DNA from: Vulcanimicrobiota bacterium | GTDB taxonomy: Bacteria; Vulcanimicrobiota; Vulcanimicrobiia; Vulcanimicrobiales; Vulcanimicrobiaceae | Assembly (NCBI GenBank): GCA_963777315.1 | Contig: CAVZQC010000001.1 | Span: 160,001 to 224,000 of the forward strand | Direction of reading: 5' to 3' | DNA length: 64,000 bases | Shown here: positions 14,758 to 31,632 of the stretch, piece after piece | How the letters are laid out: every line of letters begins with the position of its first letter | How positions within the stretch are numbered: position 1 is the first letter of the stretch | Translations under genes and position numbers: made by a program | Notes under the pieces: generated by a model | The model's database searches: none | Seen by the model: only the letters and a program-made list of their open reading frames with translations | Told to the model about the DNA's origin: nothing

Positions 14758-15189
14758 GTGCCCTCCCCCGTCCGGCGCGGTCTTCCGCCGCGCGCTTACG
14801 TTCCGATCGTCGTCGTCGTTGCGGCGATCTTTTTGGGCATCATGGCGTGGCTCGTGCACGCGGGTTTTACCACCGGCGGTTCCGTCTTCGGCGCCGGTAC
14901 TGGAGCAAGCAATCACACAGCCGTCGTGAACGCCGGTCCGCCGGCGGTCAGCGTTGAAGGCGGACCGCCGGCGGGCGTTCGCGTCGCGCTGCAGGAACTG
15001 CGCGATCGCATCGCGCGCAATCCCAAGGACGACGTCGCGCTCACGCAACTGGGCGACATGTATCTGGCCGTGGGAAAATATGCGCAGGCCATTCCCTACT
15101 ATCGTCGCGCCCTTGCCGTCAATCCCGGCAACGCCGCCGCGAAGGAAGGCCTCGCACAGGCACGCAGCGGACTACAAGGCTCGCAATGA
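14758..15189 (+). CDS. membrane-anchored TPR protein
   Basis: N-terminal TM helix, C-terminal TPR (LGDMYLAVGKYAQAIPYYRRALAVNP); ATGA coupling to the next gene. Confidence 0.75.
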   Translation: MPSPVRRGLPPRAYVPIVVVVAAIFLGIMAWLVHAGFTTGGSVFGAGTGASNHTAVVNAGPPAVSVEGGPPAGVRVALQELRDRIARNPKDDVALTQLGDMYLAVGKYAQAIPYYRRALAVNPGNAAAKEGLAQARSGLQGSQ

Positions 15190-16019
15190 AGCTCTATATT
15201 TCCTGCGATATGGAAGGCACGGCCGGCGTGTGCAGCTGGATGCAGTGCGATCCGTCCAACGCGCGCGAATACCCAATCTATCGCCGCTACATGTCGCAGG
15301 AGGTGCGCGCCGCGATAGACGGCGCGCGCAGCGCCGGCGTCACGCAGGTGCTGGTCAACGATTCGCACTGGGATATGCGCAATCTGCTGTGGGACGAATT
15401 GCCCGACGACGTTCGAGTGCTCAGCGGATCGCGCAAGCCGTTCTCGATGACGCAGGGACTCGACGCCGGATATGCCGGCGCCTTCTTTACGGGGTATCAC
15501 GCCAAGGTCGGAGACGCCGACGGCGTCCTCGCGCATACGTACACTGCCGAAACGCTCTACAACGTTCGCATCAACGGCATCGCCTGCAGCGAAGCGCTTC
15601 TCAACGCCGCCATGGCGGGATATTACGGCATTCCGCTGCTGCTCGTCAGCGGCGATCGGGTCGTCGTCGATCACGTTTGCGAGCATATGCCCTGGGTGCG
15701 CGGCGTCGCGGTCAAAGAAGGCATCGGCCATTATTCCGCCGATTCGATCACGCCCAAGGCGGCGCAGGCGCTGCTCGCGCAGGCCGCAGCCGAGGCAGTG
15801 CGCGCTGCTGCCCAGGCAAAACCGTTCACGTTCTCCGCGCCGATCACGCTGGAGTTGGATACCGCGCGCGCCGAACAGGCGGACTTCATCGAGCTCATGC
15901 CGGGCTTCCGGCGAACCGCCGGGCGAACCGTGCTCTTTGCACACGACGATTATTTGACGGTGTTCCGCGCGTTCGTCGCTGCATTCCGTCTAGGCGGCGC
16001 GGCCGGCGCCATCGCTTGA
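15186..16019 (+). CDS. M55 family D-aminopeptidase (DppA-like), copy 1
   Basis: YISCDMEG, NDSH, FTGYH, HT, SGD motifs. Confidence 0.92.
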   Translation: MKLYISCDMEGTAGVCSWMQCDPSNAREYPIYRRYMSQEVRAAIDGARSAGVTQVLVNDSHWDMRNLLWDELPDDVRVLSGSRKPFSMTQGLDAGYAGAFFTGYHAKVGDADGVLAHTYTAETLYNVRINGIACSEALLNAAMAGYYGIPLLLVSGDRVVVDHVCEHMPWVRGVAVKEGIGHYSADSITPKAAQALLAQAAAEAVRAAAQAKPFTFSAPITLELDTARAEQADFIELMPGFRRTAGRTVLFAHDDYLTVFRAFVAAFRLGGAAGAIA

Positions 16020-16029
16020 TGCCGCCACG

Positions 16030-16866
16030 ATGAACCTTTACATCTCGTGCGACATGGAAGGCACGGCGGGCGTTTGCAGCTGGCAGCAGGTCGACGCGCG
16101 CAACCAGACCGCCGACTACGCGATCTATCAAAAGTACATGACGGGCGAAGTCGCCGCGGCCGTCGAGGGCGCGCGAGAATCGGGTGCGACCGGCGTGCTG
16201 ATCAACGACTCGCACGGCCCAATGCGCAATCTACTCTTGGACGATCTTCCGCACGACGTTCGCGTACTGTTCGGTAGCCGCAAACCCTACTCGATGACGC
16301 AGGGAATCGAGGGCGGATACGATGCGGTGTTCTTCACCGGCTACCACGGCGCCATCGGGGACGCCGATGCAACGCTGTGCCACACGTACACGCCCTCGGT
16401 CGTCTACGACGTGCGGGTGAACGGCATCCGCTGCAGCGAAGCGACTCTCAACGCCGGCCTTGCGGGCCATTACAACGCGCCGGTGCTGCTCGTTACGGGC
16501 GATCGCGCCACCGTGGAAAGCGCCCGAGCGCAGATGCCGTGGATAACCGGCGCCGTCGTAAAGGAGAGCATCGGGCACTACGCGGTCGATTCGATGTCTC
16601 CACGCGCCGCGCAGCAGGCGATACGCGCCGCAGCGGCACGAGCGTTCCGCAGCATGTCCAACGCTAAACCGTACGTGTTCCAACGGCCGATTGCGCTGGA
16701 GATCGACGTGGCTCGCGTGGAACAGGCGGATCTGATCGAATTGATTCCGGAATTCCAACGGCTGGGGCCGCGGCGCGTGCGTTTCGTGCACGAAGACTAT
16801 CCCACGGTGTTCAAGGCGTTCGTAGCGGCGTTTCGGATGGGGGCGCTGGCGGACGGTCCGGCGTAG
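16030..16866 (+). CDS. M55 family D-aminopeptidase (DppA-like), copy 2
   Basis: Same motifs; clear paralog of the preceding gene. Confidence 0.92.
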   Translation: MNLYISCDMEGTAGVCSWQQVDARNQTADYAIYQKYMTGEVAAAVEGARESGATGVLINDSHGPMRNLLLDDLPHDVRVLFGSRKPYSMTQGIEGGYDAVFFTGYHGAIGDADATLCHTYTPSVVYDVRVNGIRCSEATLNAGLAGHYNAPVLLVTGDRATVESARAQMPWITGAVVKESIGHYAVDSMSPRAAQQAIRAAAARAFRSMSNAKPYVFQRPIALEIDVARVEQADLIELIPEFQRLGPRRVRFVHEDYPTVFKAFVAAFRMGALADGPA

Positions 16867-18760
16867 CCGCCGGCACGTATTTTTCAAACCACGCGAGGAT
16901 TCGCGAGCAGTAGTCGACGTACGCTTCGAAGCGTCGAATGCCGTGCCCCTCCTGCGGGTAAATGACCAGCTCGCAGACCGCTCCGTTGAGCACGAGCGCG
17001 CGATGAAACGATCGCGCCTGAGCCGGATCGCAGTTGGTATCCAAAGCGCCGGCGATCGAAAGCGTCGGAGTGCGCACGCTGCCCGCATACCTGATGGGGC
17101 TGCGTGAAACGAACGGGCCGTTGGAGTCAAACGGATCGCCGCCCAAAAACAGCGCATCGCCCAGCGCATTGTCCGATTCGAATCGCATTGAAAACCAATC
17201 GGTGATCGGAAAGGCGCTTACGGCAGCCGCGAACATGTTCGTCTGCGTAACCAGCCACGCGGCCATGAATCCCCCGTGACTGCCGCCCATTACCGCCAGG
17301 CGACCGGCTTGGGCAATCCCTTGACCGATCAAGAACTCTATGCCGCACAGTATGTCGTACGTCTCTTCTCCGCCCACGTCGCCGCGCACCATTTGCGCAA
17401 ATGCTTGGCCTCTGCCGGCGCTTCCGCGCGGGTTGGGAAGCAGCACCGCGTAACCGCGGCTCACCAGCAATCCGGTCAACTGCTGGGAAAGCGCCCACGA
17501 GTTGGTATGCGCGGAAACCGGGCCGCCGTGAACGAGGACGACGAGTGGAAACGGGCCGTCCGCACTCGGTCGTGCCAAGTATCCGTGAATGGACAGACCG
17601 TCGCGCGCTTTCCAGGAAATTTCCTTGAGATCGGCCGTCGTTTCGGCGACGTACGCGCTGCCGGCGTGTGCGAAGCCATGCAGCGAAACGGCAGGCTCTG
17701 CGCCGTCGAAGTACACCAGCGATGGAGCGTTCGCGTACGAATGGGCAACCGTGACGTACCCTTTACCCGCGCGCGCCGTGGCCGGATATGTGCGAAGCCA
17801 TGTCTCTCGCGCGCGACGCGCGATGCGCGCGCGCGCACTGGAGGTGTGGATTACTCCGGCTGCCACTTCGAAATCGCAAAGGCCGGCAAAATCGAATTCC
17901 CCGTTGCCGGCGGCTTGCAGAAACGTCACGTCGACGCCGTGCGTATCGACGGCGCGCCTTTGCCAAGCGCGCCCGCGTTCGAAGAGCTGCACGTCTCCGG
18001 CGACCAGCCCGCGGTCGCTGCAGCACGCCTCCACCACTGCAACGAACGCACCGTCGGGCGTGGCAGCCGGTAGGCCGAGCTCGTATTCCGGCCGGTAGAT
18101 CGTCCGGCACGCGTCCGCGGACAGCGGTAGATGAACCAGCCGCGTTTCGTGCCAAGCGCCTTCACGCGGGTCGTCGGATACGATCGCGGCGACGGCGTCG
18201 TTTCCGCACCAGACCGCTTCCCAAAACGTCAGGGCGTGCGGGTGGATCGCTTGGACGCAGCCATCGGCTACCACGTACGCGAAAATGCGCCGCCACTGCG
18301 TGCAGGCATTCGGCGGTTCCGTTTTGGGAAACCACTCCGGGTGCTCGTTGCGCGAAGCCGTAACGGCCGTTCGCAGGAGAATTCGAGCACCGTCGGGCGA
18401 CCAGCTGAGCGATTCGGCCGATCCCGGCACTTCGGAAGCCTCAGGACGAATCATTCCGTTCGTATCGGCGACGTACAACCGGAACCGCCCCGGACTGCCT
18501 CGATCGGAAAGAAAGGCGAGTTGGCCGGACGGCGACCAACGCGGCCCGATATCGTTGCCGCCGCTTTCGAGCAGAGACAGCGCGCAGGCGGCGGTGTCGA
18601 ACACGCCGATTCGCGATGCTGCAACGCCGCCGAGCTGCTCGTAGACGGAGCCGGCCAGCGCGACGTAACGCCCATCGTGCGATGCGCTCACTTCGCGCAC
18701 GTCCTCGAGCTTGCCCAAACCCGGTTCGTAGATCCGGCGAAAATGCTCGAAGACGCTCAC
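16811..18760 (-). CDS. S9 family serine peptidase (prolyl oligopeptidase/acylaminoacyl peptidase-like)
   Basis: WSPDG propeller repeats, VHGGP, NPRGS, GGSHGG nucleophile, D (LDTNC), EGHG; GTG 18760 overlaps the upstream stop (GTGA); no signal peptide seen. Confidence 0.9.
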   Translation of the reverse strand: MSVFEHFRRIYEPGLGKLEDVREVSASHDGRYVALAGSVYEQLGGVAASRIGVFDTAACALSLLESGGNDIGPRWSPSGQLAFLSDRGSPGRFRLYVADTNGMIRPEASEVPGSAESLSWSPDGARILLRTAVTASRNEHPEWFPKTEPPNACTQWRRIFAYVVADGCVQAIHPHALTFWEAVWCGNDAVAAIVSDDPREGAWHETRLVHLPLSADACRTIYRPEYELGLPAATPDGAFVAVVEACCSDRGLVAGDVQLFERGRAWQRRAVDTHGVDVTFLQAAGNGEFDFAGLCDFEVAAGVIHTSSARARIARRARETWLRTYPATARAGKGYVTVAHSYANAPSLVYFDGAEPAVSLHGFAHAGSAYVAETTADLKEISWKARDGLSIHGYLARPSADGPFPLVVLVHGGPVSAHTNSWALSQQLTGLLVSRGYAVLLPNPRGSAGRGQAFAQMVRGDVGGEETYDILCGIEFLIGQGIAQAGRLAVMGGSHGGFMAAWLVTQTNMFAAAVSAFPITDWFSMRFESDNALGDALFLGGDPFDSNGPFVSRSPIRYAGSVRTPTLSIAGALDTNCDPAQARSFHRALVLNGAVCELVIYPQEGHGIRRFEAYVDYCSRILAWFEKYVPAATPDRPPAPPSETPLRTP

Positions 18761-21546
18761 GCGCGGGCAGGTCTTGTGCCCAGTGCTTCCTGCACCGCGC
18801 GCTGTTCGCTCCATGCGGCACCTTCGCTCGCGCACGCATCGCGCTCGGACGGCGTCAGCTTTGCCGCGAGCTCGCGCTCGATGCTTTGCCGTCCCCATGC
18901 CTCGGTCGCTTCGCGTTCGACGGCACTCGAGTCGAAATACGCGTCCACGTATGCGCACAGACGCGCGGCCAGGCGCGCGTCACCCTCCAGCGCTTGCGCT
19001 AGGGCGACGTGCTGAAGTGCGATGGCGGTCTGATAGCTGTCCTGCGTGCCGGCAAGCATACCGATCGCAGCGACTGCATCGTCGGCGCCTTGCGCGCGCT
19101 CGCCCTGCGCTATGCGGTAGATCGCCAGATTGCAGCGAAGGTTCGCAGCCAACCGCGCGGCGCCCGCGTTTTGCGAGGGCAGCAGCGCTTCCAACGCGTG
19201 CCGGACCGCGCCCTTGTAGTCGCCGCATTGAAACTCCAAGTCCGCCAAGTACGCATGCGTCTGACCGATCGCATATTCGCCGCCGTGGCTGAGCGCCGCG
19301 TCCAGCGCTTGGCGATGAATCGCGCGGGCATCTTCGATCTGACCGCTGCCCGCAACGATCGAGCCCAGCGTGTTCGAGGCCACTGCAAATCCGGAAACGT
19401 CGCCGGCCTCCTGCAGCAGCGTTGCGGCCCGGCGCGCCGCCGTCTCGGCCGCGGTCCACCTGCGCGCGCGACGCAGCGCCAACGCCCGCTGGCGCAGCGC
19501 ATATCCTAATCCGCGACGATCGCTAACGGCCTCGTAGAGCTCGCAAGCGCGTTCGGCTGCCTCCAGCTTCTTGGCAGCCTGCAAGAGAACCGCTCGGGCC
19601 AAATGCAAACGCGCCGCAACACCGGGTTCGAGCGCTTCGTCGAGCGCCGCCAGCCCGCATTCGATCCAATAGAGCCCTTCGCCCAGGTGGCCGGCGTCGA
19701 ACCAAAAACGCTCGAGCGACCCGGCGATGGTGCCGCCCAGCACGGGATCGTTGCGCGCATCCAGCGCCCACAGCAACGCCGCCCGCACGTTTTCGTGCTC
19801 GCGCGCGAGCTGCGCAAACCACTGATACTGCGGCATCGCCGTCTCTTGGTCGCCCTTTTGCGCAAAGTCGCGAAAGAACTCCGCGTGTTTGCGCGCCGCG
19901 AGCTGGCGTTCGCCGTTTTCCGCCAGCTTCTCCAACGCGTATTCGCGACTGGATTCGAGCAGATCGTATCTCTCGTGGCTGCCCTCGGTGTGCGCGACCA
20001 CGAGCGATTTTGCCGCCAGTGACGCGAGCAGATCGAGCACTTCGAGCGCGTCGCCGCAATTCTGCCCGCACGTCGCAGCTGCGGCGTCCCACGAAAATCC
20101 GCCCGCGAATACGCCGACGTGCCGGAAGAGCGCTTTTTCGCGCTCGTCGAGCGAGTTGTAACTCCAATCGATGAGCGCGCGCAGCGTTTGATGATGCGGC
20201 AAATCGTCGCGGCTTCCGCGTGTGAGCAAACGAAACCGCTCGGTAAGTCCGTCGCTCAGACGCGCGACGCTCAAAACTCCGATGCGCGCCGCAGCGAGTT
20301 CGATTGCCAGCGCGATGCCGTCCAGCCGCCGGCAAATGTCGCCGACGATGGGTGCGGTTTCTTGCGTCAATACAAAATTTTGACGGACCGCAGCGGCGCG
20401 CTCGGCGAACAGCGCAACCGCGCTGTACTGCAGCGCATCCTGCGCCGTTACGGCCGAGCCTCGGGGCGGGTACGTCAGCGGTGGGACGCGGTACACCTGT
20501 TCGCCGGCCAGTCCGAGCGCTTGGCGGGACGTGGCGAGGACGTGCAGGCCGTTCGAAGCACGCAGCAGCTCACGGCAAAACTCGGCCACCGCTTCAATAA
20601 GGTGCTCGCAGTTGTCGAATATCAACAGCGTGGAACGCGCCGACAGCGCGGCGGCGATCGACGCATTGAGCGAGCGATCCGGCGATTCGTGAATCCCCAG
20701 AGCGGCTGCGACCGCATTGGGGACGAACTGGTCGACGGTGATCGGCGCCAGCTCCACCAGCCACACGCCGTCGGGAAACGTCTGCAGCATCTGCGACCCC
20801 ACGCATACCGCGATGCGGGTCTTGCCGATGCCCCCGCTGCCGGCAATCGTGACGAGCCGATTGTTCTGCACGCATGCCATGAGCGCCGCGACTTCTTCGT
20901 CGCGTCCCACCAGCCGCGTGAGCTGCGTGGGCAAATTGTTGCGCGAGGGCTGCGAAAGCGGGGACAGCGCAAATTCATCTCGCAGCTCCGGAGCGCACAA
21001 TTGAAACACGCGTTCGGGCGCGGCGACGTCGCGCAGCGTGAAATACCCCAGTTCCCGAACGCTGACATGCGCGCCCAGATGACGCTCGACCATGTCCGCA
21101 GTCACGGACGTGAGCAGCACCTGGCCGCCCTGCGCAAGGCCCATCAGCCGAGCGACGCGGTTGACCGCAGGACCGAAATAATCGCCGTCCCGTTCCTCGG
21201 TTTCACCGGTATGAACGGCCATACGCACGCGCACGCCGCTTACGGCGCTGAAATCCTCCTGCGCCAAGCGGCGCTGAGCTTCTAATGCCGCGTCGACGGC
21301 GTTCTTGGCTCGATCGAAAACCGCGCAGCACCCGTCACCGAGTTTTTTGAATACGATGCCTGCGTGCGCCGCCACCGCCGAATCCATGATGGCATTGTGA
21401 CGCTCGAGTGCCGCGCCCATCTCACGGCCGTGCGCTTCCCAGCGCAGCGTGCTGCCTTCGATGTCGGTAAATAAAAACGTCACCGTGCCCGTGGGAAGGG
21501 TACGGGTACGCGCCGAACTTTTGAGCTGGGTAGCCGCACGCGGCAT
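18757..21546 (-). CDS. class III nucleotide cyclase-NB-ARC (STAND) ATPase-TPR protein
   Basis: FLFTDIEGST, LGDG, DYFGPAVNRVARL cyclase motifs; GSGGIGKT P-loop; LLIFDNCEH Walker B; LDGIALAIELAA; TPR-like C-terminus. Confidence 0.92.
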   Translation of the reverse strand: MPRAATQLKSSARTRTLPTGTVTFLFTDIEGSTLRWEAHGREMGAALERHNAIMDSAVAAHAGIVFKKLGDGCCAVFDRAKNAVDAALEAQRRLAQEDFSAVSGVRVRMAVHTGETEERDGDYFGPAVNRVARLMGLAQGGQVLLTSVTADMVERHLGAHVSVRELGYFTLRDVAAPERVFQLCAPELRDEFALSPLSQPSRNNLPTQLTRLVGRDEEVAALMACVQNNRLVTIAGSGGIGKTRIAVCVGSQMLQTFPDGVWLVELAPITVDQFVPNAVAAALGIHESPDRSLNASIAAALSARSTLLIFDNCEHLIEAVAEFCRELLRASNGLHVLATSRQALGLAGEQVYRVPPLTYPPRGSAVTAQDALQYSAVALFAERAAAVRQNFVLTQETAPIVGDICRRLDGIALAIELAAARIGVLSVARLSDGLTERFRLLTRGSRDDLPHHQTLRALIDWSYNSLDEREKALFRHVGVFAGGFSWDAAAATCGQNCGDALEVLDLLASLAAKSLVVAHTEGSHERYDLLESSREYALEKLAENGERQLAARKHAEFFRDFAQKGDQETAMPQYQWFAQLAREHENVRAALLWALDARNDPVLGGTIAGSLERFWFDAGHLGEGLYWIECGLAALDEALEPGVAARLHLARAVLLQAAKKLEAAERACELYEAVSDRRGLGYALRQRALALRRARRWTAAETAARRAATLLQEAGDVSGFAVASNTLGSIVAGSGQIEDARAIHRQALDAALSHGGEYAIGQTHAYLADLEFQCGDYKGAVRHALEALLPSQNAGAARLAANLRCNLAIYRIAQGERAQGADDAVAAIGMLAGTQDSYQTAIALQHVALAQALEGDARLAARLCAYVDAYFDSSAVEREATEAWGRQSIERELAAKLTPSERDACASEGAAWSEQRAVQEALGTRPARA

Positions 21547-21563
21547 TGTAACCTGAGCTTCTC

Positions 21564-21592
21564 TTGCCTGCTCCTTTTTTCCGCGCTATAGA
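21564..21592 (+). promoter_or_regulatory. candidate sigma70 promoter for the borosin genes
   Basis: TTGCCT-17 bp-TATAGA in the 79-bp divergent intergenic region; AGGGAG RBS before 21626. Confidence 0.35.
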
Positions 21593-21625
21593 GCGCTTGT
21601 TTGGCCGCTTACAGGGAGAACACTG

Positions 21626-21895
21626 ATGGCGACACCCGTTACCGACTACGTTCTGCGTCTGGCACGCGATCGCCAAGAGGCTGAGAAATTCAAAACGTCC
21701 CACGCGTCCGCCAAGCAGTCCATGACTGCTGCAGGCCTGGACGAGCAACAGCAAGAGCTCGTGCTCAGCGGCGACGCCAACCGGTTGGGCGAGGCGATGC
21801 AGAGCGAAATGTCGGTCCATGCGCAAGTTAACGCTGCGTACAATAACGTGCAGTGTAAGATGACTATTCCGATACCGCACCCTCCGAAGCAGTAG
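21626..21895 (+). CDS. split-borosin RiPP precursor peptide (LigA-like borosin-binding domain + C-terminal core)
   Basis: Helical leader DYVLRLARD...KF...AAGLDEQQQELVLSGDANRL resembles SonA-type leaders; good RBS; 12 bp upstream of the borosin methyltransferase. Confidence 0.8.
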   Translation: MATPVTDYVLRLARDRQEAEKFKTSHASAKQSMTAAGLDEQQQELVLSGDANRLGEAMQSEMSVHAQVNAAYNNVQCKMTIPIPHPPKQ

Positions 21896-21907
21896 GAAGC
21901 AGCCGGC

Positions 21908-22792
21908 GTGCCCGCCGGGTCGCTCAGCGTGGTCGGCACCGGTATTCAAGTCGTCTCGCAGACCTCGCCCCAGGCTGCAGCATGCATCGAAGCGGCGGAT
22001 ATCGTCTATTTCGTTTCGGCCGACGCGCTGACGGCGGTCTGGATCCGCCAAATCAATGCCAACGCGCACTCGCTCAACGGATTGTACGCCGAGGGCAAAG
22101 ATCGCGGCATCACGTACGAAGAAACGATCGATCGGGTGCTCGAATCCGTATTCGCAGGACAAGACGTTTGCTTTGTCAGCTACGGCCATCCCGGCGTTTT
22201 CGCGTACCCCACGCACGAGGCGATTCGACGCGCCCGAGCTGCAGGACACCGCGCCCAAATGCTGCCTGCCATATCGGCCGATGCGTGTCTATTTGCCGAT
22301 CTCGGCATCGATCCGTCGTCGACGGGATGCCAAAGCTTCGAGGCGACGGATTTTCTGCTGTACGGCCGCCGTTTCGACTGCCGGTGTTCGCTGCTGCTCT
22401 GGCAAATCGGCATCATCGCGGAGATGGGCCATTTCGACAGCTTCACTCTCTGGAACCGGGCCGGAGTTGTCACGTTGGTGGAGGTCTTGCGCCGGGATTA
22501 TCCCGCCGAGCACACCGTAACGGTGTACGAAGCTCCACGATACGCCTGCTGCGAACCGCACATCGAGCATGTCGCGCTCGCGGAGTTGGCAAACGCGAAT
22601 ATCACTCCGCTGTCCACGCTGTACGTCCCGCCCTACGGAAAAGCCGAACCCGACCTCGAGATGGCCCGCCGGTTACTCGATCAGACGTCGGGGCGCGCCG
22701 GCCGCGCGCTGCTCGCAAGCGCTCCGCCCACGAACGCGCCGACGCCGCCGAGCAGTGCAGCCGCGTACGGATACCAGCTGGGAAAGGGCTGA
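21908..22792 (+). CDS. borosin alpha-N-methyltransferase (OphMA/SonM family)
   Basis: GSLSVVGTGI, LY..GKDR...Y (catalytic Tyr/Arg/Tyr equivalents), YGHPGVF, MLPAISA..CLFADLGIDP, GCQSFEAT, LWQIG, STLYVPP. Confidence 0.92.
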   Translation: MPAGSLSVVGTGIQVVSQTSPQAAACIEAADIVYFVSADALTAVWIRQINANAHSLNGLYAEGKDRGITYEETIDRVLESVFAGQDVCFVSYGHPGVFAYPTHEAIRRARAAGHRAQMLPAISADACLFADLGIDPSSTGCQSFEATDFLLYGRRFDCRCSLLLWQIGIIAEMGHFDSFTLWNRAGVVTLVEVLRRDYPAEHTVTVYEAPRYACCEPHIEHVALAELANANITPLSTLYVPPYGKAEPDLEMARRLLDQTSGRAGRALLASAPPTNAPTPPSSAAAYGYQLGKG

Positions 22793-23073
22793 TGCGGCGG
22801 AGGTTTGGAGATCGCGGCCGCCAGCGCCGTAGCGGACGCAATGGCAAAGCCCAGGGCGGTAGCATGGCTCAAGGGACGTGAGGGCGCCAACCGCGCAGTA
22901 ACCGCACCGGCGACGATGCCCGCAGCCAAGGCGACGATTTCGCCGCCGATGATGGCCTGCGGCCCCATCCGCCCGTGCATTGCAGCACTCAGCATTGCGG
23001 CGCCGACGAGCTCGAGCACGATCAGCGCGAGGTACCCGGCCAGTACCGCCAAGATGGTGCGGCTCGGATTCAA
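22681..23073 (-). CDS. small integral membrane protein (about 4 TM)
   Basis: Four hydrophobic segments; 6 bp downstream of the DRE-TIM gene. Confidence 0.7.
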   Translation of the reverse strand: MNPSRTILAVLAGYLALIVLELVGAAMLSAAMHGRMGPQAIIGGEIVALAAGIVAGAVTARLAPSRPLSHATALGFAIASATALAAAISKPPPHQPFPSWYPYAAALLGGVGAFVGGALASSARPARPDV

Positions 23074-26985: not shown

Positions 26986-28400
26986 CGCGCTGGGTTTTGC
27001 TGGTAATCGCGGGCGCTGCGGCAGCTGCCGCGTTACTATTTGCGCGTCCGCACCAAACGCCGGGACCGCCGATGCGCGATTTCGAAGCCTATTACGCCGC
27101 CGGTGCTGCTTGGCGCGCGGGCGAAGATCCGTACGGCGCGGCAATTTGGCGGTACGAAAAAGTCCTGGCCGGCGTGCAGCCCGCACGCTACGAGCTGCTG
27201 CCGTTCGTCGGGCCGCCCGCCATACTGCCGTTGTGGAGCGCGGTCGCGCGCTTGCCGTTCGCAGCGGCCAACCTTGCGTGGCGCGCGCTGCTCGTGCCCT
27301 GCGTTGCCGCCCTCGTGCTCGTTGCGCTGGGCTTGTGCAGGATACGGATTGCGCCGTTCTCGTTTGCTGCGGTTGCAGTCGCCGCGCTGGGCTTCGGTCC
27401 GATCACGAGCGCTGTTGCGCTGGGCCAAATCGCGTTGCCGTCGTTCGCCTGTGCGGCGCTGGCGCTGCTGTGGGCGCCCGCCGGAATCTTTGCCTGGGCG
27501 CAGCCCAACATCGCGCTGACGCTTGCATCGCAAGTGCCGCGCCGTGCGGGCGCGATCGCTTTCGTCGCCGGCATCGCCGCGTTCGCGTCGGCGTGCCTTA
27601 TCGTGGCCGGGCCGCAAGGTTGTCTGCGTTACCTGGCGGTTCTGCGCGCGCACGAACTCGCCGAGCGCTTTGCGCTCATTCAAATAACGCCCGCTGCGGT
27701 CGCCTATGGTTTCGGCGCGTCACCGGCCGCCGCAGCGACCGTCGGAATTGCCGTCAGTGCGTGCGCAATTGCGCTGTGGGTACTCTTCATGCTCAAACTG
27801 CGCGATAGCGCCGCTCGCTTTTGCGCTACCTGTGCGCTCGTGCCGGCGGCGATGCCGTTCTTTCACGAGCACGATCTGCTGATCGCTTTTCTGCCGGCGC
27901 TGTACTTCACCATGCGCTGCAGCGCGCGCGTGTGGCCGCTGGCTGCAGGCGGCGCCTTATTGTGCGCCACGGACTGGTTGGGTCTCGCGCAGCGCCCCGA
28001 TGGTATGCCGCAGACGCTGCTGCTCGTCGGCGCCGCCGGTATCGCGCTGTTTGCGCTGCGAAACGATCTCCACGCGCGCGCATTGGCAGCGCCCGCCGCG
28101 GTTCTGGCTCTCGTCGGCATCGCAGGCGCGTTCGCCTACGCGCATCCCGCGCCGGTTTGGCCGGACGCAATGCGAGCATTACCTGCGACGGTTCTGCACG
28201 GCAACGCCGCGCAGGTTTGGAGCGCCGAGCAGATCGCGGCCGGTCTGCTGGCGCGCAATCCGTTTTGCGCTATCCTGCGCTGCGGGTCGCTTGGGGGCTG
28301 CGCGCTGCTTGCGCTGGCCGCGTGCCTTCGGCGCCCCGACCGCGGCGATCAAATGTCGACGTTCATCATCTCGTCGAATTGCGTAACTGCGCCGGGGTGA
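26982..28400 (+). CDS. GT-C fold membrane glycosyltransferase (GT87/DUF2029-like)
   Basis: DFEAYYAAG..GEDPY, F..PP, GQ, HEHD; polytopic; GTGA overlap with the M50 gene. Confidence 0.7.
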   Translation: MTRWVLLVIAGAAAAAALLFARPHQTPGPPMRDFEAYYAAGAAWRAGEDPYGAAIWRYEKVLAGVQPARYELLPFVGPPAILPLWSAVARLPFAAANLAWRALLVPCVAALVLVALGLCRIRIAPFSFAAVAVAALGFGPITSAVALGQIALPSFACAALALLWAPAGIFAWAQPNIALTLASQVPRRAGAIAFVAGIAAFASACLIVAGPQGCLRYLAVLRAHELAERFALIQITPAAVAYGFGASPAAAATVGIAVSACAIALWVLFMLKLRDSAARFCATCALVPAAMPFFHEHDLLIAFLPALYFTMRCSARVWPLAAGGALLCATDWLGLAQRPDGMPQTLLLVGAAGIALFALRNDLHARALAAPAAVLALVGIAGAFAYAHPAPVWPDAMRALPATVLHGNAAQVWSAEQIAAGLLARNPFCAILRCGSLGGCALLALAACLRRPDRGDQMSTFIISSNCVTAPG

Positions 28401-29986
28401 AAGCCGCGCAGATCTTTATTGAAAAAGAAGATGTCTTCCGAGCCATAGATCACGACCGCCGGCGTGTCCTTTTGCAATTGGCGTTCGACGATTGCCACGT
28501 CCTGGTTTCGCTGCGCTTGATCGTAGTGGGCGAACAGGTCGTGCATCGCTTTATTGGCAGTGGGATTGCACCATCTGACGACGTTCTGCCCGTTGGGCGG
28601 GATCTGATCGCAGGCGTAGAGATTGGAGAAGTCGCCTATCGGGTCGTCGCCCCAGTTGACCAAAGCGACGTCCCATTTTCCGTTGTACAGTATGCCGCCG
28701 GCTTGATACGTGTCGAAGTACAGGTTGGCCGGATAATGCTTGACGACGAGACCGACGCCGATCTGCTTCCACCATTGACGTACCAGTTCGATCATGCGAT
28801 CCGTGTCGGGGGTGCCGATCGACGTAGCAAATTCCAAATTGAGTTTTTGCCCCTGCTTTGCGCGAACGCCGTCCGGACCGCGTTTCCAGCCTGCGGCATC
28901 CAACGTCCGGTTCGCTGCGGCAATGTCGAAGGGCACGAGCGCAATGCCGGGCTGCCAGTAGGGTGACGTGTGGGGAGCCGGCTGTTCCTGAAGGTAATTC
29001 GCACCGAACCGGATCTTTTGAATGATCGTGCGGCGGTCCATCGCTTGTTCGAGCGCATGCCGCACAGCGGCATCGCGCATGGCGGGTCGTTGAACGTTGA
29101 ATTCCATGTACGCCGTGTAATAGGCCGGCTGAAGTATGGCCGTGAAACCCGGGAGCGTGTTGAGGTGCTGTCCGATGTAGTAACTGCCGGGGACCGGGTA
29201 CCACAAATCCAGTACGTGCGCTTGCAGCGACGTCATCACCGTATTGCGATCGGGGATGATGTCGAAATCGATTTCCTTGAGCTTGGGCATGCCACGCCAA
29301 TACAGCGGATTGGGCACCATTACGACGCGCTGCGCACGTTCCCAAGCCTTGTACTTGAACGGCCCGATGCCGATCGGCAAAGAGTTGTACGCGACGTGGT
29401 TGATGTTCGGATATTGCGCCAGCAGGTGCTTGGGCAGTACGCACGGATTGGCGCCGCCGCTGGAGAAAAACGTCGTGACGAACGGTGAGTACGGTTTGCC
29501 GAGGTGGAAAACCACTGTGTACTTGTCGGGCTCGGCTGCCGTGGTGATTCTATCCCAGCCCGCGCGGCTGACGATATTGTTGGCCGGGTTCATGACGGCG
29601 TGATACGTCCACACGACGTCGTCGGCCGTAAACGGCGCCCCGTCGGACCATTTCACGCCCTTGCGCAGATGATACGTGATGGTCAGACCGTCGCGGCTCA
29701 CGCCGCCGTTCTGCATTGACGGCACCTGCGTCGCCAGTTCGGGGAAAGGATGGTTGTTGCGATCCCACTTCACCAGCCACGCCATGGTCAGCGAGGACAT
29801 CATGCCGAGCGTGGTTTGTTGGATCAGCAGCGGATTGAGCGATGAGACGTCTTCGGCGGTCGCGTAGCGCAGCACGTGCGGGCGCGTCCACGAATTGAAC
29901 CGCTCCTGCGTACCGCCGCCGCCTTGTTTGGAACACGCGGCGAACGCGAACGCGACGGCCAAAGCCAGTCCGAGGATGCGTCTCAT
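28349..29986 (-). CDS. peptide/nickel ABC transporter substrate-binding lipoprotein (family 5)
   Basis: Lipobox FAAC, LRKGVKWSDGAPFTADDV, IGIGPF, LDAAGW; ATG 29986 coupled to the upstream stop. Confidence 0.92.
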   Translation of the reverse strand: MRRILGLALAVAFAFAACSKQGGGGTQERFNSWTRPHVLRYATAEDVSSLNPLLIQQTTLGMMSSLTMAWLVKWDRNNHPFPELATQVPSMQNGGVSRDGLTITYHLRKGVKWSDGAPFTADDVVWTYHAVMNPANNIVSRAGWDRITTAAEPDKYTVVFHLGKPYSPFVTTFFSSGGANPCVLPKHLLAQYPNINHVAYNSLPIGIGPFKYKAWERAQRVVMVPNPLYWRGMPKLKEIDFDIIPDRNTVMTSLQAHVLDLWYPVPGSYYIGQHLNTLPGFTAILQPAYYTAYMEFNVQRPAMRDAAVRHALEQAMDRRTIIQKIRFGANYLQEQPAPHTSPYWQPGIALVPFDIAAANRTLDAAGWKRGPDGVRAKQGQKLNLEFATSIGTPDTDRMIELVRQWWKQIGVGLVVKHYPANLYFDTYQAGGILYNGKWDVALVNWGDDPIGDFSNLYACDQIPPNGQNVVRWCNPTANKAMHDLFAHYDQAQRNQDVAIVERQLQKDTPAVVIYGSEDIFFFNKDLRGFHPGAVTQFDEMMNVDI

Positions 29987-31632
29987 ATCGAATACTCCCA
30001 CGGATTCCAGAACGCCGATATCACCGGCGAGGGAAGAAAGTTCTTCAGATCGGTGTTGTAGACGTACGGCTCTTTCCAAAAGAACAGAATGATGCTCGGA
30101 ACGTCCTTGGCCATCTGCTGCTGAACGATTGCGTAGTCGCGCCTGCGCCGGTTTCGGTCGAGCGTTTGCAATGCGTCGTTCATTGCCGCCGTTGCGACGG
30201 CGTTCGTCCAAAACAAGGCGTTTTGCCCGTGCGGGGCAAGGTTGTCCGCCGAATAGATCGCCGAGTCGTCGGGATCGGCCGATGCGCTCCAGCTGTAAAG
30301 TGCGGCATCGTAGTGGCCGCCCTGCAGCGTACCCGTCGTGCCGTTTTGAAACATCAGTTGCGAAGGCACGTTTTTCACGATCGCTTCCGCGCCGATCTCG
30401 TGCCATTGCCGCTGCAGCAGCGTTTGGATCTGGCGTGCGTAGTTGGCCTCCGCAATGCACGTGAGGTCGAAGGATAGGCGCCGGCCGTCTTTGACGCGGA
30501 TGCCGTCGCGGCCGCGGGTCCATCCATCCGCCTGCAAGATCTGCGAGGCTTTGGCCGGATCGAACTCATGATGTTCGAATGCATTCGTGTACGCCCAGGA
30601 GAGCTGCGGCGATTGGTCGGTCTGCGCCGCCACCGCCGAACCGTGCATCACTTTGTCGACCAGCTCCTGACGGTTCGTCGCGTACGCCAGGGCCACCCGG
30701 ACGCTGCGATCCGCGAACAACGGGCGACGCAAGTTGAAGTCGATGTGCGTGTACAGAAAGCTATCGACGCGGACTGCCCTAAGGCCCGAGCCCGGCCCGC
30801 TGATCTGCACGTACCTCGGCCAGCTCAGGCCCGTTCCGCGCGCGAGCAGGTCGATCTCGTGCGTCTGCAGCGCGGTAACCATCGTGTTTTCGTCGGGCAT
30901 GTAACGGAACACGATTTCCTTGAGCTTGGGCTTGCCCAAGAAATAGCGCGGGTTTGCCTCCAAGCGTATCTCGCTGCCGCGCTGCCACTGCAGAACCTTG
31001 AACGGACCGCTGCCGATGGGCATCGACTGATAGGGCGCGCTGTTGAAGGAGCCTTTGTCGTCGTTGTACTTCGCCAGCAAATGTTCGGGCAGGATCGCCG
31101 CGTTTCCGTTCACGCCCCACAGCTGCTGCAGATATGGCGCGTACATGCGTTTCATGTGAATGACCGCAACGTACGGATCGCTGCAGTCGATGTCGTTGAT
31201 GTCTTTATAGCCGTCGGTCGTGACGACGTTGTTGTGCGTGTTCATGACGGCTTGCCACGTAAAACGCAAGTCCCGGCACGTGAGCGGCTGACCGTCCTGC
31301 CACGTGACGTTATGCCGCAGCTTGTATTTGAGCGTGCGGCCGTCTTTGCTCACGTCGCCGTTCTCAACCGTGGGAATCTCCGAGAGCGCATCGGGAACCG
31401 GCTGCGCCTTGTCGTTGTAGCGCACGGCGTACGAATAGATGAACATCGACAAGTCGCCGGTGATCGCCGACGCGTTGAGCATCGGATTGAGCGACGACGG
31501 TTCGGCGTTTTCGGCAAACCGCAGGACGCCGGGGTGAGTCCACGCGTTTCCGCCGCCCGACGCGCCGCCTTGTTTGGTGCACGCGGCCAGCATGACGGCG
31601 GCGGCCAGCGCGGCCCCAAGGCGACTGTTCAT
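29983..31632 (-). CDS. peptide ABC transporter substrate-binding lipoprotein (family 5)
   Basis: Lipobox LAAC, WQDGQPLT, IGSGPF, NPRYF. Confidence 0.92.
   Translation of the reverse strand: MNSRLGAALAAAVMLAACTKQGGASGGGNAWTHPGVLRFAENAEPSSLNPMLNASAITGDLSMFIYSYAVRYNDKAQPVPDALSEIPTVENGDVSKDGRTLKYKLRHNVTWQDGQPLTCRDLRFTWQAVMNTHNNVVTTDGYKDINDIDCSDPYVAVIHMKRMYAPYLQQLWGVNGNAAILPEHLLAKYNDDKGSFNSAPYQSMPIGSGPFKVLQWQRGSEIRLEANPRYFLGKPKLKEIVFRYMPDENTMVTALQTHEIDLLARGTGLSWPRYVQISGPGSGLRAVRVDSFLYTHIDFNLRRPLFADRSVRVALAYATNRQELVDKVMHGSAVAAQTDQSPQLSWAYTNAFEHHEFDPAKASQILQADGWTRGRDGIRVKDGRRLSFDLTCIAEANYARQIQTLLQRQWHEIGAEAIVKNVPSQLMFQNGTTGTLQGGHYDAALYSWSASADPDDSAIYSADNLAPHGQNALFWTNAVATAAMNDALQTLDRNRRRRDYAIVQQQMAKDVPSIILFFWKEPYVYNTDLKNFLPSPVISAFWNPWEYSI

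Follow-up and report, generated by a model that had tools for sequence, protein, structure and literature searches.

More than 2,500 borosin clusters have been predicted, mostly in bacteria, and the accessible portions of two reports count a single isolated bacterial product (PMC10549244; bioRxiv 2024.01.09.574750). Shewanellamide A had no antibiotic activity, according to the available sections of one of these papers (PMC10549244). Among split borosins, type IV is the commonest, accounting for 746 of 947 sequences, and GGDEF signalling genes occur in 56% of split-borosin clusters (bioRxiv 2021.12.24.474128). The available text of one source names only OphP and SamP as characterised borosin proteases (bioRxiv 2024.01.09.574750), and in that of another a peptidase is usually lacking from borosin clusters (PMC11395268).

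The closest described relative of the locus presented here is the SonM/SonA pair of Shewanella oneidensis MR-1 (PDB 7LTC; PMC8429565, PMC10549244). As far as the available parts of these sources describe it, that system has a separate enzyme of about 260 residues, with the same active-site residues as ours, and a short precursor in which a binding domain of five helices is joined to a C-terminal core. The son cluster also includes a signalling gene, a GGDEF gene there, where our locus has a cyclase-STAND-TPR neighbor instead; it has no protease in the text available, whereas the block described below has an S9 peptidase and no efflux pump. The core differs from that of SonA, with a cysteine, alternating hydrophobic residues and a proline-rich end. 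The sam cluster of Shewanella amazonensis (shewasin A/SamP), in the accessible part of its description, likewise joins a type IV pair to a cluster-encoded protease, although SamP is an A1 aspartic peptidase and the candidate for precursor cleavage here is an S9 serine peptidase (bioRxiv 2024.01.09.574750). In the omphalotin pathway, OphMA is homologous to our enzyme (E 1e-48) and has a partner, OphP, of the prolyl-oligopeptidase family. OphP belongs to family S9; it is, however, a macrocyclase serving a fused fungal precursor, while the peptidase here is acylaminoacyl-peptidase-like, and macrocyclization is not implied. Type X borosins, which are TPR-TM-GGDEF-methyltransferase fusions, also combine the methyltransferase with a TPR sensor and with a cyclase for cyclic nucleotides (bioRxiv 2021.12.24.474128), but they are fused, membrane-spanning and make c-di-GMP, whereas the sensor here is a separate cytoplasmic STAND protein with cAMP as its predicted product. 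STAND regulators of the MalT and AfsR type share the combination of an ATPase with a TPR-type sensor, and MalT is activated by ligand binding at its sensor, according to the portion available of its source (PMC4381067). HaaT (NF041717), from cyclophane RiPP clusters, is a further STAND-TPR protein of RiPP clusters. The present sensor differs from MalT, AfsR and HaaT in its cyclase output, and its NCBIfam matches to HaaT (47 bits, cut-off 1125) and to AfsR fall far under the cut-off. Few bacterial STAND regulators have known ligands.

The window, by which we mean the whole stretch of 64,000 nucleotides that was analysed, contains a precursor-enzyme pair that, by itself, is of an ordinary and known kind (Table 1). 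The original prediction had described a frame of 89 residues with a good ribosome-binding site, 12 bp before a methyltransferase frame of 294 residues; the coordinates and an AGGGAG sequence agree with this, and all five of the methyltransferase motifs that it quoted were found in the translation, which includes YGHP and CLFAD. Its identification of the enzyme as a borosin N-methyltransferase is borne out by a search of PDB sequences, in which residues 4-250 matched SonM at E 2.4e-55, the value for OphMA being about 1e-48, and all 25 matched sequences were borosin methyltransferases. By NCBIfam, YabN reached only 8e-10 and cobalamin methylases 8e-6 or weaker, all under cut-off, and TP_methylase (E 8.8e-16) was the sole Pfam match. 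These scores side the enzyme with SonM and OphMA and not with precorrin or YabN methylases. The SonM active-site residues Y58, R67, Y71, Y93, F99, E146, W166 and Q167, as given in the accessible part of PMC8429565, correspond here to Y60, R66, Y70, Y92, F98, E145, W165 and Q166; among 90 aligned relatives, R66 is conserved in 89 and Y70 in all. The enzyme occurs in a single copy in the genome.

Table 1. Positions in the window of the cassette, its genes and their parts.
Feature	Position	Strand	Basis or remark
Inserted four-gene block (S9 peptidase, cyclase-STAND-TPR sensor, precursor, methyltransferase)	16865..22709		DNA homology breaks
S9-family serine peptidase, beta-propeller plus hydrolase, acylaminoacyl-peptidase-like, 649 aa	16811..18760	-	Pfam, PDB
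Sensor, 929 aa, cytoplasmic: class III adenylate-cyclase domain, STAND/NB-ARC-like ATPase, TPR	18757..21546	-	Pfam, PDB
TPR sensor region, residues 561-929, proposed peptide-binding part	18760..19866	-	Clade of borosin-adjacent copies
Cyclase domain, residues 19-156	21079..21492	-	Six canonical positions; alignment to Ma1120
Divergent spacer, 79 bp, between sensor operon and borosin operon	21547..21625		Sequence
Type IV borosin precursor, 89 aa	21626..21895	+	AGGGAG ribosome-binding site; sole such gene found in genome
Borosin-binding domain, five predicted helices (4-14, 16-24, 26-36, 40-48, 51-66)	21635..21823	+	AlphaFold2, SonA fold match
Predicted core, residues ~72-89	21839..21892	+	Conserved Cys77, alternating hydrophobics, Pro-rich end
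Borosin methyltransferase (SonM-like), domain part	21908..22681	+	SonM E 2.4e-55, active site conserved, one copy in genome
Full methyltransferase open reading frame	21908-22792	+	GTG start, 294 aa
Read-through tail, 36 residues, antisense to convergent membrane gene, probably functionless	22682..22792	+

The predicted length of 294 residues holds for the open reading frame but probably exceeds the functional part of the protein. The methyltransferase domain ends near residue 258, the median length of its relatives being 259 residues, and the enzyme consists of this 258-residue domain plus a tail, with no fused binding domain or core. Residues 259-294 are the antisense of the final codons of a gene for a 130-residue membrane protein (22681-23073, minus strand), and the tail matches elsewhere in two related genomes, G001 and G011 (L020, L021), at sites of that membrane gene where no borosin gene is present. 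Because of this overlap and these matches, the tail is taken as read-through, and its candidacy as a functional extension was rejected.

A separate substrate with a helical, SonA-like binding domain had also been predicted, and the results agree. The AlphaFold2 model of the precursor (mean pLDDT 74) places helices over residues 4-66 and leaves the C-terminus unstructured. SonA was the top match in both fold searches, a weak one (E 0.76 in one; Z 6.8 with rmsd 2.0 over 52 residues in the other, a Z in the common range for helical bundles and by itself not decisive). Searched alone against PDB sequences, the precursor retrieved SonA in seven of seven rows, again weakly (E 0.35-0.64). A profile built from 49 of the 64 precursors found, the window's included, reached E 1.3e-9 with SonA and 0.01-0.1 with the OphMA clasp region. 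TAL-repeat entries that ranked above SonA in the profile search were rejected, being sums of short repeats in which no single stretch passes. When the precursor was searched against a protein database, it matched itself and nothing else; relatives were found by genome searches, and of 94 loci scanned, 63 have a related small frame upstream of the enzyme. Within the genome, the binding domain was matched in the small frame only.

From this evidence, the pair is almost certainly a type IV split borosin, and the enzyme is predicted, by analogy, to methylate the backbone of the precursor core in trans. A tetrapyrrole or YabN-type methylase beside an unrelated small frame is a scarcely credible reading of the pair. 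TP_methylase as the only Pfam match, and the weakness of the single-sequence (E 0.35) and fold matches to SonA, are what such a reading would lead one to see, but it has to contend with the wide gap between the SonM and YabN scores, with intact borosin residues, with the profile match of the precursor family to SonA, and with the recurrence of the small frame before the enzyme.

Cys77 is conserved in all eight precursors from cassettes of the type described below, whose linkers (63-71) are 0-22% identical to one another. A pattern C-x-h-x-h-x-h occurs within the last 30 residues of eight of eight cassette precursors and one of 56 others; because it was defined post hoc from those same eight, it is descriptive and provides no test. 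In variants of SonA and OphMA the residue before a proline escapes methylation, and SonA is methylated at alternating positions, according to the part available of PMC11751858. By analogy, methylation here would likely fall on V75, C77 or M79, and not on I81 or I83.

In treating the locus as a precursor-enzyme pair, the original prediction was right about the pair but overlooked its travelling companions, the sensor and peptidase genes. DNA homology with G001, a genome of the same genus, ends at 16864 and restarts at 22710, and the flanks are contiguous in G001. The intervening 5.85 kb, which hold the four genes, lie between a pair of M55 aminopeptidase genes and the 130-residue membrane gene. 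Among five relatives in which the same site was found, the block is absent from four (G001, G393, G015 and G011) and present in G181; G393 and G015, like G001, have the flanks without the block at the homologous site. The GC content of the block equals that of its surroundings, a Pfam scan of the block found no integrase, transposase or exporter, and no terminal repeats at the block ends appear among the repeats listed. The four genes are one inserted cassette with defined ends.

The site itself has some features of its own. In G011, two other S9 genes occupy it, beside the M55 pair (L181:5838-8546, G011:C19), and it is possibly an insertion hot spot. The tandem M55 D-aminopeptidase genes (window 15186-16866), 60% identical to each other, lie after genes for a SprT-like protein and a small TPR protein, and are conserved in five of the five relatives checked. 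Farther along, outside the insert (window 28349-31632), are two tandem genes that resemble those for family-5 peptide-binding proteins of ABC importers.

Divergent from the pair is the sensor gene. Its product matches Guanylate_cyc in Pfam (E 5e-11) and, weakly and under cut-off, AAA_22 and NB-ARC, with TPR_12 and TPR_MalT matched in orthologs; it matches class III cyclases in PDB (E 1e-17), while no PDB sequence match was obtained for the STAND-TPR part. A Walker A motif lies at residues 236-243. Residues D28, K67, D71, D122, N129 and R133, which we take to be the canonical catalytic and ATP-selecting positions of class III cyclases, are invariant in the six cassette cyclases that were aligned. 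The protein is thus predicted to be a STAND ATPase whose output is a class III cyclase with the full adenylyl-cyclase catalytic set, making cAMP. The G011 sensor keeps the ATPase and TPR regions (54-59% identical) but has a BTAD activator domain where the others have the cyclase; by sequence, the input is retained and the output swapped. A complex prediction for the TPR region with precursor residues 56-89 scored 0.00 and counts neither way. The promoter scan found no consensus promoter in the spacer, and a sigma-70-like pair seen there by eye failed that scan. The genome, of 2.83 Mb, has eight NB-ARC-type STAND loci; besides the sensor there are, at C1, C2, C3, C4 and C5, seven STAND-TPR paralogs of this type, six with a cyclase domain, and none is beside a borosin gene.

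Sensor, precursor and enzyme occur in the same divergent layout in eight genomes (G000, G181, G011, G001, G015, G232, G393 and G297). When the DNA flanking six of these eight cassette loci was compared pairwise, two pieces of less than 100 bp were in common and no more. The trio is maintained even though enzyme identity is down to 55-59% and the surrounding DNA is different. A tree of 28 TPR regions places the eight divergent borosin-adjacent copies in one clade (100/100) and six tandem borosin-adjacent copies in a second (100/100), apart from 14 borosin-free copies. Subgroups of the first clade, namely the window with G011, G001 with G015, and G232 with G393 and G297, reappear in the enzyme tree (74 rows, quick method, three broken enzymes omitted). 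A search of 401 genomes with the TPR region, scoring four candidates per genome, returned as its six best non-self matches all six borosin-adjacent copies in the sample, the sixth less than 10 bits above the next; the G015 copy scored 226 bits against 217-218 for borosin-free copies. The sensor beside the borosin genes was the top match of its own family in all 15 genomes checked, a result based on identity in G001 and G011 because their sensors are split by frameshifts. These two frameshifts, and one in the G181 enzyme, are either assembly errors or decay. The matching trees are evidence of co-inheritance of sensor and pair and carry no direction; the same match would be expected of a sensor that controlled the operon.

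This persistence, despite enzyme divergence and changed flanks, bears on whether the sensor and peptidase are passengers on mobile DNA, with the precursor-enzyme pair alone functional. Such an account, which we find improbable, would draw on the fact that the block is an insertion, on the abundance of STAND loci and S9-like genes (about 11 matches) in this genome, and on the other S9 genes at the G011 site. It is opposed further by the block, in which we saw neither integrase nor transposase nor terminal repeats, and by the survey that follows, where three unrelated types of sensor fill the neighboring position across the class.

Of 401 genomes of the phylum, 69 have the enzyme, and it also occurs in G011. 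After two genomes were left out, 68 loci were analysed, 63 of them in the window's class and five, with long enzymes, in another class. A sensor gene is directly beside the pair in 57 of the 63 class loci and one gene away in one more, for a total of 58: 15 have an NB-ARC-type STAND, 17 a LuxR-type STAND and 26 a PDZ-membrane-GAF protein. The NB-ARC-type STANDs, eight divergent and seven tandem (one of the seven loci having an enzyme fragment only), carry cyclase, BTAD or XRE outputs. Two of the five class loci without a sensor are at contig edges, and no sensor was found at the five long-enzyme loci of the other class. With 16 sensor-type genes in this genome (up to 21 of one family occur in G009), we estimate chance adjacency at about 1-3%. 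Since kin share neighbors, and the enzyme tree requires at least six changes of sensor type, the 58 cases amount to about six or seven independent associations. Outside the class, a TPR protein lies within about 3 kb in six of 15 loci, by a scan of 54 of 98 listed frames, from which shadows, distant frames and two metagenome loci had been dropped.

The PDZ-membrane-GAF proteins, of about 570-610 residues, are encoded directly after the enzyme in one large clade, at L027:7918-9633 (P0002) and 25 related loci. This unannotated family has no Pfam match at E 0.001 and no evident output domain. Similarity is 53-81% among borosin-linked copies and 26-37% for paralogs, with up to 21 matches per genome. 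For one such protein, Atlas clusters had GAF in 10-25% and PDZ in 10-16% of members, and were commonest in Vulcanimicrobiota.

A sensor this regularly adjacent might be an upstream regulator that answers another cue and switches the borosin genes on, the peptide acting elsewhere; it would work through cAMP and a CRP-type protein here, and directly in the LuxR, BTAD and XRE versions. We consider this unlikely, yet a serious contender. The divergent layout with a common 79-bp spacer would suit a regulator, the genome has six cNMP-binding matches (four above the family cut-off), and STAND regulators, such as AfsR and the LuxR-type large ATPases, are frequent in biosynthetic clusters, the sensor's own AfsR match being under cut-off. 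However, cAMP is diffusible, which would leave the cyclase free to move away from its target, yet it is adjacent in seven genomes. The spacers of the eight cassette loci have no motif in common that could serve as an operator, and the block encodes no exporter. Nor is there a recognizable output domain in the PDZ-membrane-GAF partner of 26 loci, and PDZ domains are known to bind peptide C-termini.

The peptidase is linked to the pair more weakly than the sensor is. It matches Peptidase_S9 (E 1e-42) and PD40 in Pfam, its best PDB matches are S9 and acyl-peptide hydrolases, and its GTG start overlaps the TGA stop of the sensor gene. An S9 gene is present in five of the eight cassette loci and absent from three, one possibly having lost it to a contig end; of nine other genomes with this ortholog, six have no borosin gene within 1.5 kb of it. 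A different S9 paralog is near the pair in six loci of another family, which suggests repeated recruitment of S9 peptidases to borosin pairs. The S9 protein is a candidate maturase or signal-clearing enzyme and no obligatory part of the cassette.

All four block proteins look cytoplasmic, judging by their sequences, a feature that would also fit a guard arrangement, in which the STAND protein gauges the state of the whole precursor (SAM supply, proteolysis, Cys77 thiol redox or phage) and the S9 peptidase destroys the unprotected form. The accessible text on the sam pathway has methylation gating proteolysis and not serving as product decoration (bioRxiv 2024.01.09.574750), and Cys77 is conserved throughout the cassette precursors. 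We nevertheless regard a guard as quite improbable: PADLOC (2023 library, E 0.001) matched no family for any of the four block proteins, and the sensor comes from a large paralog family with ordinary transcription-factor outputs.

We propose instead that the four-gene cassette is a peptide-signalling switch, with the methylated core as the ligand that controls cAMP output by the sensor, and we put the chances of this at about even. The observations behind it are all of genomic context: the identity and order of the genes, the ends of the cassette, the co-inheritance of sensor and pair, and the swap of output domains. By analogy with SonM and SonA, the enzyme would dock the precursor through the five-helix domain and N-methylate amides of the core, using SAM. 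The S9 peptidase would then likely release or trim the core, which would bind the TPR sensor and, as ligands do in MalT, activate the STAND protein, so changing its predicted cAMP output. More tentatively, borosins across the class may be backbone-methylated signal peptides with receptors of their own: in this genome a cysteine-containing core, released by S9 and recognized by an NLR-like, cAMP-making STAND protein, and in relatives peptides acting through LuxR, BTAD or XRE STANDs or a PDZ membrane sensor.

If this is true, bacterial borosins would have their first assigned function, a bacterial STAND protein would have a RiPP as its ligand, and OphP and SamP would be joined by a borosin protease of a third kind. 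The cassette is compact and sharp-ended, and its sensor output is enzymatic, which makes the question of borosins as signals testable by a cAMP assay. We found no report of a borosin with an adenylate cyclase in the open literature searched; among the papers listed there, none pairs a borosin with a STAND protein by title or abstract start, and we saw no account of a STAND protein with a borosin peptide as its ligand. New here are the cyclase as output, the S9 peptidase as candidate maturase and the definition of both ends of the cassette, none of which turned up in that literature.

Several other loci seen in the survey deserve mention. The long borosin-type enzymes of another class (L152-L156; about 540-580 residues), for which no separate precursor was found, are possibly fused types; rhodanese-like genes are neighbors in two of these loci. 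Among Microcoleus borosin-type enzymes (L037-L045), no binding-domain precursor was found upstream, and at L037 two TPR genes follow the enzyme. DUF4760 genes recur near L024, L106, L107 and L149, although the family may simply be expanded. At the XRE-STAND loci L036, L108, L121 and L130, and at L055 from Bacteroidota, a gene for a B12-binding radical SAM protein, a possible second tailoring methylase, adjoins that of the borosin enzyme.
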